Assembly (NCBI GenBank): GCA_030018805.1
Contig: JASEHL010000001.1
Location: 1 to 57,521, forward strand
DNA from: Patescibacteria group bacterium
GTDB lineage: Bacteria > Patescibacteriota > Minisyncoccia > Moranbacterales > UBA11712
DNA: 57,521 nt
Reading direction: 5' to 3'
In this document: one piece after another, positions 28,733 through 29,407 of the stretch
Layout: every line of letters starts with the position of its first letter
Numbering within the stretch: position 1 is the stretch's first letter
Notes under the pieces: model-generated
The model's input: the letters and a program-made list of their open reading frames with translations, nothing else
What the model was told of the DNA's origin: nothing
Databases searched by the model: none
Made by a program: the position numbers and the translations under genes

Positions 28733-29407
28733 TTACTGCCGTGGTTTACAGATAACGTCAGTAGCCGTAGTTGTCCTATCGTTCCAAGTTACTTTTACTG
28801 TAACATTTAGGCAGTCCCCCGCGTCCAAATCTATCCCCCCTCCGTTCATATCAACCCCGTAAACATCAATGTCTCTGGAGTAATCAGTCTCATTAGAATG
28901 GCCCATGTTTGGACATTCATAATATCTTTCGATGCTTGAATCAAGACAAATCGCCACTTTATTCTCACAGTTATGGTCGCTTAAAGAAGTATAATCAATC
29001 GCTTTGCACTGGTTATCAGTCTTGTCAGCTTTACAATTCTTCTTGCACACGTTCTTCCACCAATCATCTCCATTGAGATAATTATAATCTATGATATTCC
29101 GCACCAGTTCCGTTCCTTCCTGCGCCAGCCCCGCGGCGATCAACTCGTTTTTGGCTTCGAAATTGCTCTGGAGGCTTGAATTGAAAAAAGAAAGAACTCC
29201 GACAAGCCCCACTGAAACAAGAAAAATCGTGACCAAAAGTTCCACAAGAGTGAACCCCTCACCAATTCCAGATGTAGAATTTTTCTTAACAAAAGCAGGA
29301 AGGCGAAGCCGCTCCGCTTCATTGCATAAAAAACTCACAAAAGGTGAGTGAAACTGGTGAGGGGTGAACCCCGCTTTTTTGCATATTTTTTTTCCAGGTT
29401 TGGACAT
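28733..29407 (-). CDS. type IV minor pilin (PilV-like) with a 38-aa insert in the leader
   Basis: GEGFTLVELLVTIFLVSVGLVGV. A second GFT motif lies 38 aa upstream. Confidence 0.7.
   Translation of the reverse strand: MSKPGKKICKKAGFTPHQFHSPFVSFLCNEAERLRLPAFVKKNSTSGIGEGFTLVELLVTIFLVSVGLVGVLSFFNSSLQSNFEAKNELIAAGLAQEGTELVRNIIDYNYLNGDDWWKNVCKKNCKADKTDNQCKAIDYTSLSDHNCENKVAICLDSSIERYYECPNMGHSNETDYSRDIDVYGVDMNGGGIDLDAGDCLNVTVKVTWNDRTTTATDVICKPRQ
29250..29372. repeat. 114-bp palindromic insertion bounded by a 9-bp direct repeat at the prepilin cleavage motif
   Basis: gtgaacccc occurs at 29250-29258 and 29364-29372. The inverted termini are cccctcacca (29255-29264) and tggtgagggg (29355-29364). Confidence 0.8.

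Follow-up and report, generated by a model that had tools for sequence, protein, structure and literature searches.

We analysed a 57,521-nt stretch of DNA from a Patescibacteria group bacterium (GenBank assembly GCA_030018805.1, contig JASEHL010000001.1, positions 1 to 57,521 of the forward strand; the whole stretch is called the window below), in which the gene of a PilV-like minor pilin carries a palindromic insert within its leader. The open reading frame (ORF) of the pilin lies at 28733..29407 on the minus strand and encodes 224 aa, with 38 extra codons in frame between two Gly-Phe-Thr (G-F-T) motifs. The features of the locus are listed here by position.

28733..29254, minus strand: mature PilV-like minor pilin (FTLVELLVTIF...) and stop codon; Pfam N_methyl (PF07963) at residues 51-72, 19.9 bits (cut-off 21.2); 80-81% identical to the orthologues P0002 and P0003
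29250..29258, plus strand: first copy of the 9-mer GTGAACCCC, made up of a host G, TGAA and the element's CCCC (direct-repeat search)
29251..29254, minus strand: downstream TTCA copy, giving the mature pilin's +1 residue, Phe52, and the first base of Thr53 (sequence reading)
29254..29270, no strand: terminal inverted repeat, arm towards the mature pilin, 17 nt, 88% complementary
29255..29257, minus strand: GGG codon for Gly51 (-1 of the regenerated site), from the last three bases of the element (reading frame; same layout in loci L067, L071, L072 and L082)
29255..29364, plus strand: palindromic element, 110 nt, CCCCTCACCAATTCC...GAAACTGGTGAGGGG; covariance model R1, 91.4 bits on the plus strand versus 55.9 on the minus strand; nhmmer E 1.6e-20; aligned with eight other genomic copies
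29255..29407, minus strand: 51-residue leader, MSKPGKKICKKAG FT[PHQ...GIGEG] (ORF translation)
29300..29320, plus strand: central family motif, consensus AAGGCGAAGCCGCTTCGCTCTC, slightly altered here (AAGGCGAAGCCGCTCCGCTTC) (invariant alignment columns)
29333..29349, minus strand: small terminator-like stem-loop ACTCACCTTTTGTGAGT then TTTTTTAT, inside the element in the mRNA sense (consensus scan only)
29349..29365, no strand: terminal inverted repeat, arm towards the start codon (repeat search)
29364..29372, plus strand: second copy of the 9-mer, made up of the element's last G, TGAA and host CCCC (GCG GGG on the coding strand; direct-repeat search)
29365..29368, minus strand: upstream TTCA copy (TGAA on the plus strand), giving Phe14 and the first base of Thr15 of a 'decoy' G13-F14-T15 motif (compare the 4-nt repeats of other copies)
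30068..30916, minus strand: prepilin peptidase PilD, same operon, two genes upstream (PF06750, 2e-32; PF01478, 1.7e-12)

The repeat search found the two copies of the 9-mer to be 100% identical at a spacing of 114 nt, or 38 codons, and found the inverted arms at the ends of the insert, both as claimed in an original prediction made from the letters of the window. Its reading of the protein, with two G-F-T motifs and a 51-aa leader, also agreed exactly with the translation. Shuffles led us to expect 0.21 occurrences of the 9-mer in the window, and three were found. On the minus strand the junctions read AAAGCG GGG TTC A/CCCCTCACCAG...TTGGTGAGGGG/TTCA CTC TTG, where slashes mark the ends of the element; the gene starts ATG TCC AAA CCT GGA AAA AAA ATA TGC AAA AAA GCG GGG TTC A/CC CCT CAC CAG ... 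and the insert ends ... GGA ATT GGT GAG GGG/TTC ACT CTT GTG GAA. A 136-nt stretch over the insert folded in the mRNA sense at -54.1 kcal/mol (z = -6.66; 0 of 200 shuffles as stable), and the sense strand of the 110-nt element alone at -46.7 kcal/mol. The features of a class III signal peptide were present at the downstream motif, GIGEG/FTLVELLVTIFLVSVGLVGVLSFF (Gly-1, Phe+1, Glu+5 and about 21 hydrophobic residues), with the exception of a short leader. The encoded leader contains nine K/R and three D/E residues and would be 13 aa long if the insert were removed. The upstream G13-F14-T15 motif continues as PHQFHSP and not as a hydrophobic helix.

We found pilin orthologues in 60 of 61 related genomes, with alignments that begin only past the extra segment. 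Their leaders are 6-15 residues long, for example MLEKKG/FTLIELL, MPQYKKKMFQKAG/FTLIELL, MFQYQKKTSRNGG/FTLIELL and MKSANEKNRG/FSLTEML, and most of 85 homologues from a large protein collection have leaders of 4-22 residues. By the names that homologues bear, the lineage belongs to Candidatus Moranbacteria. These short leaders bear out the claim that removal of the insert leaves a textbook prepilin leader; a long leader in all relatives, which the original prediction had named as the observation that would speak against it, was not seen. The empty sites that it had proposed to look for were present in two syntenic loci, L070 (GGA TTC ACT CTC) and L068 (GGT TTT ACT CTC), both of which contain pilD, a FimT-like pilin, the pilin, a PilW-like pilin and ligA. 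Together with the short leaders they uphold the central claim, that an insertion landed on the prepilin cleavage motif and the motif was regenerated.

In locus L067, from an independent ENA metagenome assembly of a related organism, the pilin gene carries this insert too, again with the 9-mer at each end; 104 of 114 nt are identical, and the flanks are the same. The neighbouring proteins are more similar to those of L067 (PilD 82%, FimT-like about 75%, PilW-like 76%) than to those of L068 and L070 (78%, 40-47% and 54-55%, respectively). Since L067 is the nearest relative by its neighbours and shares the insert, the insertion predates the split of the two. These data show that the insert is a derived insertion with an ancestry shared with L067. 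Other observations were made at these loci. The mature pilin is a mosaic, 80-81% identical to the more distant L068 and L070 and only 59% identical to L067, which points to recombination or to diversifying exchange of the C-terminal domain. Upstream of pilD, L067 has an ORF of the 23S_rRNA_IVP family (L067:1192-1422), and its ligA (L067:5225-6453) was called as four fragments, which could be further inserts or assembly errors.

A BLAST search of the whole element against its own genome returned only the self-match, suggesting that the insert was unique. This was overturned when the family was recovered by a search for the termini with mismatches allowed and by a profile hidden Markov model (HMM), which gave nine full copies in the 1-Mb genome (nhmmer E 7e-23 to 2e-20). 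The genome search suggested in the original prediction thus yielded eight further full copies, of 108-111 nt, on contigs C19, C30 (two), C66, C15, C34, C39 and C44. The family has the termini CCCCGCACCAATTCY...RGAATTGGTGCGGGG, the central motif given above and variable arms, with a mean column identity of 70%; all members start with CCCC and end with GGGG. The 16-bp terminal stem is kept across the nine copies with compensatory changes at five positions. Many G:U pairs form on one strand only, and this defines an orientation (HMM scores 73-80 bits versus 22-39 on the other strand), which in the pilin copy is the plus strand, antisense to the gene. The insert matched the covariance model of the nine copies, its own included, with 91 bits (E ~1e-22), and the model found the family in 18 of 19 genomes and in 11 of 11 genera of the bacterial family. 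The element thus belongs to a repeat family that is old and widespread. No Rfam family matched the element or the brackets, described next, that lack a tRNA gene.

A wider superfamily was defined by the first ten bases of the termini, the 'CCCCGCACCA...TGGTGCGGGG' bracket, and comprises about 33 elements of 41-157 nt in the organism's own genome (G000). The tetranucleotides that flank its 66 ends on the outside are far from random, with TTCA at 13, CTTG at 12 and TTTA at 6. In the window, a 68-nt superfamily copy lies at 21630-21697 between two minus-strand ORFs, and small pieces lie at 16072-16146, just past the 16S rRNA gene; the latter include the third GTGAACCCC, at 16072, which adjoins a small element of the superfamily. 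Five tRNA genes are enclosed by brackets: Ser(UGA), Val (C28), Arg-CCG (C30), Leu-CAG (C32) and Gly-CCC (C9). The tRNA-Ser(UGA) gene, at 43762-43850, sits inside the bracket CTTG CCCCGCACCAAAAAT ... ATTTTGGTGCGGGA (window 43724-43872), which is conserved in genus g8 (L099) and absent around the same tRNA in g11 (L103).

Seven full-length copies are intergenic. They all lie 10-60 nt upstream of a start codon, with the G:U-rich strand always antisense to the gene. In G000 they are:

C39:4956-5065, listed with dnaE
C30:7715-7822, listed with guaB
C66:35646-35753, listed with glyA
C44:39518-39628, listed with an L,D-transpeptidase gene
C34:1682-1792, listed with an unknown gene
C19:2347-2455, listed with greA
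C15:15523-15631, listed with a small membrane protein gene

In other genera, several of them are retained at the orthologous position (for example C15/L045, C39/L064 and C66/L048). We considered whether they were intrinsic terminators acting in the sense strand and rejected this, because in every case in this genome the G:U-rich orientation runs antisense to the adjacent gene. At the site between a PBP2-like gene and greA, the interior of the copy is inverted between two genera (G000 C19:2347-2455 versus G001 L043:1501-1609, with the identical left flank GAGTGCTTTTAAATTCA), so that the greA copy of G001 has the opposite orientation to that of G000. The interiors are identical at 58 of 77 nt when one is flipped and at 47 of 77 in the same orientation, which suggests flipping of the palindrome interior or re-insertion at the same site.

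We also found copies within protein-coding genes. One full copy lies in frame in uvrA (G000 C30:1994-2104; L030:101-211), with an orientation and reading frame matching those of the pilin copy (TPHQLQ...SWGGA). In comparison with the solved UvrA structure 9gxu it is a clean 38-residue insertion, K[TPHQLQTSSVDNQSNESESASPYRKNNSKKSISSWGGA]SISEI, between GGK and N/S-I. Four superfamily copies also lie in frame in genes of G000:

C4:7040-7119, in a phosphoglycerate mutase gene, after codon 5, with TAAA repeats
C12:7394-7473, in the gene of a GT39-like membrane protein; this 80-nt copy is at the same site as a 110-nt copy in G016
C33:46920-46999, in a topA-like ORF of 806 aa
C22:44988-45088, in a superoxide reductase gene (101 nt), with TGAA repeats

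Relatives have in-frame copies in pheS, in an Xaa-Pro aminopeptidase gene and in a GT39-like gene. When elements were removed as a check, no convincing out-of-frame copy within a gene was found; what looked like such cases proved to be in-frame inserts at the N-terminus, ends of genes or copies between genes.

The original prediction had described a target duplication of 9 bp. The repeat itself stood; as a duplication it was probably shorter. Because all members start with CCCC and end with GGGG, the rest of the 9-mer is accounted for by the element's GGGG, which happens to match host GCG GGG, and one C, and the true duplication was probably 4 nt (TTCA; TGAA on the plus strand), to judge from the family alignment. 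Other copies flanked by direct repeats, recent insertions among them, likewise have only 4-5 nt: GTGAA around the related 101-nt element in the superoxide reductase gene, which shares the target heptamer TTCACTC with the pilin; TAAA at the phosphoglycerate mutase N-terminus; and TGAA at C10:3175. The clearest instance is a filled and an empty allele paired from metagenomes, with GAA GGA TTTA CT in L081 and GAA GGG TTTA [CCCCGTACCACAG...CTGTGGTACGGGG TTTA] CC in L071. Identical flanking 4-mers were present at 4 of the 33 own copies, in addition to L071.

We found that the orthologous pilin has received four kinds of insert at the same codon boundary. Besides the 110-nt element of the window and L067, these are a 100-nt element of a different subfamily in L071 (protein P0051), with superoxide-reductase-type termini and a TTTA repeat; an 83-nt element in L082 (P0037, with P0014 similar), preceded by CTTG and without a duplication; and, in L072 (P0044/P0050), a 108-nt element of the 110-nt type that is oriented the other way. 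P0046 is the empty counterpart of P0051, with an almost identical 13-residue leader. The alleles show that insertion at this boundary recurred in other lineages. The recurrence could reflect a preferred target, purging of insertions elsewhere in pilins, or both; a point in favour of a target preference is that GGG-TTYA-C resembles the element's own ends. The orthologue P0007 (L010, G014) has a 33-residue leader (MPGKTKLILKSQNCPNCFAKRSRRVSNPKFREG/FT) with a different small inverted repeat (CCCGAATTG...CAAATTTCGGG), which may represent a further type of element at this position. In the leaders of neighbouring and orthologous pilins (window 28665-28716 and 32256-32295; P0003, P0018 and P0038) there are short peptide repeats (KYQIPNTK, KFKIQNS, KLKIAK), which suggests that pilin leaders of this lineage also collect DNA repeats of a heptamer type.

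To explain the locus we propose the following course of events. In the common ancestor of the organism and its nearest known relative, a non-autonomous, hairpin-forming element of about 110 nt would have entered the TTCA of the GGG-TTC-ACT (Gly-Phe-Thr) codons of the pilin gene. The element and the 4-nt repeat make 114 nt, or 38 codons without a stop, and translation from the original ATG would pass through them. The last three bases of the element, GGG, would supply a new Gly-1, and the repeated TTCA would supply Phe+1 and the start of Thr+2, placing a complete class III cleavage site directly before the unchanged hydrophobic helix. The whole element-encoded peptide would then be part of the cytoplasmic leader, and the PilD of the operon should cut it off and leave a normal mature pilin. 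The G-F-T motif is rebuilt automatically whenever a superfamily element enters at the Gly-Phe point, and not by a coincidence in one event, because the TTC of the repeat is the codon of Phe+1, so that the three bases before it are always the terminal GGG of the element, that is, Gly-1. The same ...GGGG/TTY ACN junction is present in L067, L071, L072 and L082. Prepilin peptidases depend critically on Gly-1, the one residue that they strictly require, and the leader remains cytoplasmic (PMC4471445). We infer that PilD cleaves at G51/F52. Because 38 residues separate it from the membrane helix, the upstream G13/F14 site is unlikely to be used; it is decayed in one other allele (G-LAPHQ in P0014) and absent from another (P0044), and so is evidently not needed.

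The substitution pattern was consistent with a gene that has remained in use. Between the window and L067, dS was 0.64 and dN 0.053 over the first 60 mature codons (ratio 0.08), and dN/dS was 0.16 over the whole mature part, showing, on codon comparisons, that the mature pilin has been subject to purifying selection since the insertion and that the gene has remained functional. The frame is open from the original ATG in all five insert-bearing alleles (P0001/P0004, P0014/P0037, P0044/P0050 and P0051). In the genome, seven of the nine family copies have stops in the pilin-type frame, which is open only in the two copies inside genes; this, with the open frames of the insert alleles, argues that the element is translated as part of the leader. 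The insertion would have been nearly neutral in effect, and such near-neutrality would account for its persistence with an open frame and for the independent insertions at the same codon boundary elsewhere. As a whole, we regard a mobile element in the pilin leader, with the cleavage site rebuilt and the leader discarded by PilD, as the probable explanation, and hold it with good confidence.

Several observations weigh against this explanation. The leaders of studied pilins are 6-26 aa long (PMC4471445), compared with 51 aa here. The 110-nt hairpin and the terminator-like stem with its T-run lie 13 codons into the mRNA and could lower expression. A flanking repeat is absent at L082, at the uvrA copy and at most older copies, and other pilins of the window that have TTCAC at their Phe-Thr codons carry no insert. 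A strict scan for the pattern 'element end + FT(L/I)(I/V)E' in 319 species-representative genomes of the order returned this locus and three chance or short-leader matches. With no further true case in the scan, the recurrence rests on the metagenomic orthologues, and the hotspot is real but infrequent. Synonymous changes were found at 4 of about 34 sites in the leader and insert and at 19 of 44 in the adjoining pilin codons, which is unexpected for a purely neutral passenger.

The last of these points, together with others of the same tendency, would fit a domesticated regulatory element, a hairpin or long leader kept to control the minor pilin through damping of translation or attenuation by the mRNA hairpin, cutting of the bracket stem by an endonuclease of the RNase III type, or a slowing of PilD processing by a pro-peptide. 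Synonymous divergence was low, at 0.17 in the insert and 0 of 7.8 sites upstream of it, compared with 0.64 next door. The stem has stayed paired through a compensatory double change (CCCC-T-CACC / GGTG-A-GGGG here, versus G...G in L067 and G...C in the consensus), at the cost of an amino-acid change at -2. The terminator-like stem and T-run are in the sense orientation, the five tRNA genes within the same bracket stems would fit an RNA-processing signal, and the intergenic full-length copies, seven of seven, stand shortly upstream of start codons. However, the independent pilin alleles have entirely different insert peptides and interiors, no insert is present in most orthologues or in any other pilin of the window, and the low dS was measured over few sites and might stem from recent recombination at the 5' end, in line with the mosaic pilin. 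We therefore consider domestication unlikely. In a broader form of this idea, the CCCCGCACCA...TGGTGCGGGG brackets would be more than junk, a mobile system of hairpin-bounded cassettes that can carry tRNA genes or small RNAs and insert next to TTYA. The stem would be selected even in coding DNA and may double as an RNA-processing signal, the pilin copy would be a retained regulator of minor-pilin expression or processing, and the mobilising enzyme would be an undescribed activity, perhaps encoded by one of the many Y1/HUH transposase-like genes of the genome. We put this forward as a speculative model that is also improbable.

An insertion that cripples the gene, with the long leader blocking targeting or cleavage in a minor pilin that is dispensable or whose gene is turning into a pseudogene, might be suspected from a leader about twice the longest in well-studied systems, from a strong hairpin near the start and from the N_methyl score just under the Pfam cut-off. 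We judge it quite improbable, given that two lineages that split after the insertion (their PilD proteins are only 82% identical) both retain an intact ORF, at a dN/dS of 0.08-0.16, and that the frame is open in four or five independent alleles. Removal at the RNA level, in which an intron-like segment would be cut at the bracket stem and the ends religated to give a protein without the 38 residues, would draw on the tRNAs enclosed by bracket stems and on the fact that taking out exactly 114 nt restores the original message. It is very hard to reconcile with the finding that every in-gene copy examined, here and in relatives, is in frame and free of stops, a constraint that splicing would not impose, with seven of nine copies having stops in the very frame kept open by the two in-gene copies; the lack of convincing out-of-frame copies within genes argues in the same direction. 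Finally, an ancestral long leader or an assembly artefact, with no insertion at all, has next to no probability in view of short leaders in more than 60 orthologues, family membership at E ~1e-22 and the same insert in an independent assembly.

Among known systems, the insert most resembles the Rickettsia palindromic elements (RPEs), which, in the part of the literature summarised in PMC10969869 (Ogata et al. 2000/2002), are described as palindromic repeats translated in frame within housekeeping genes. According to that summary, RPEs and the pilin family are alike as palindromes of 100-150 bp without a transposase, present in many copies in a small genome, and in repeated in-frame insertion into unrelated housekeeping genes, the extra peptide being compatible with function. 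The same behaviour was observed here, with in-frame, stop-free copies in unrelated protein genes of the organism's own genome and of relatives. The two differ in that the present family belongs to another phylum (Moranbacteria-like members of the candidate phyla radiation, CPR) and is presumably unrelated to RPEs in sequence, the likeness being one of described behaviour, in that the pilin insert lies in a leader removed by the host with the end of the element rebuilding the cleavage site, and in that the family includes intergenic copies kept at orthologous sites as well as relatives with a tRNA gene as interior. We regard the pilin element as selfish DNA of the RPE-like, in-frame kind, distinguished by its 'safe harbour' in a leader predicted to be cleaved. 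A literature search found no paper linking RPE-like elements to CPR bacteria or to prepilin leaders. The findings extend selfish DNA inside protein genes, known from Rickettsia, to the CPR, and would indicate a new route to harmlessness, in which the end of the element encodes Gly-1 and its translation product falls in the segment that the host peptidase would discard.

The leaders of type IVb and Flp pilins, of 15-30 aa, are likewise hydrophilic, positively charged, cytoplasmic and terminated by Gly, and their length is no strict determinant (PMC4471445). The present leader differs in its 51 aa, 38 of which come from a mobile element, and in its second, upstream G-F-T motif. Leaders of 42-53 residues in several lineages, about twice the textbook maximum and on pilins under purifying selection, amount to a natural experiment, which predicts that prepilin peptidases are indifferent to the length and content of the leader apart from Gly-1.

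The family was also compared with MITEs of bacteria (transposable elements of the miniature inverted-repeat type), namely Correia, ERIC, BOX, the Coxiella QMITEs and the Anabaena MITEs (PMC10969869, PMC5896051). They are alike in small size, terminal inverted repeats, high copy number, short direct repeats at recent copies and occasional in-frame fusions with host ORFs. In keeping with this, the present element is 110 nt long, has terminal inverted repeats and no capacity to encode a transposase (stops in all frames of most copies), and is dispersed with presence and absence at given sites (window/L067 versus L068/L070; L071 versus L081). The differences are that no parent insertion sequence (IS) or transposase with the same ends was found, that many copies lack a flanking repeat, that the outward tetranucleotides come from a small set (TTCA, CTTG, TTTA), and that only the termini and the central hairpin are conserved, the arms being variable.

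We then looked for the mobilising enzyme. A scan of the organism's own genome, distant pairs of termini included, found no long element bounded by the termini and hence no autonomous partner. For its 1.0 Mb the genome is unusually rich in matches to the Y1/HUH transposase family Y1_Tnp (PF01797), with 11 in all; one is canonical (contig C76, 137 bits), about nine are weaker (ORFs of 157-261 aa), and one of the 11 is in the window (26483-26710, minus strand). In L067, a Y1-family match follows the pilin genes at the corresponding position. None of the Y1 genes has a paired bracket element within 2.5 kb, and near one of them only a lone, inexact terminus-like 10-mer was seen. A model of the IS200/IS605 type, with a target tetranucleotide and the element's own 3' tetranucleotide, fits L082, the pilin and the superoxide reductase gene; it does not fit the common TTCA...CAAG class. 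REP (repetitive extragenic palindromic) elements and REPINs mobilised with RAYT proteins of the Y1/HUH type (PMC3733652) are similar in having hairpin repeats with a conserved tetranucleotide 'tag' beside the stem, and the present genome has Y1_Tnp matches. The brackets are unlike them in being 41-157 nt long and not 20-40 nt, in having TTCA/CTTG tags and not GTAG/CGTC, and in having no adjoining Y1 gene, so that they do not belong to the REP/REPIN-RAYT group. The conserved termini, the restricted set of flanking tetranucleotides and the bracketed tRNA genes are signs of an uncharacterised mechanism of insertion in organisms considered poor in mobile DNA.

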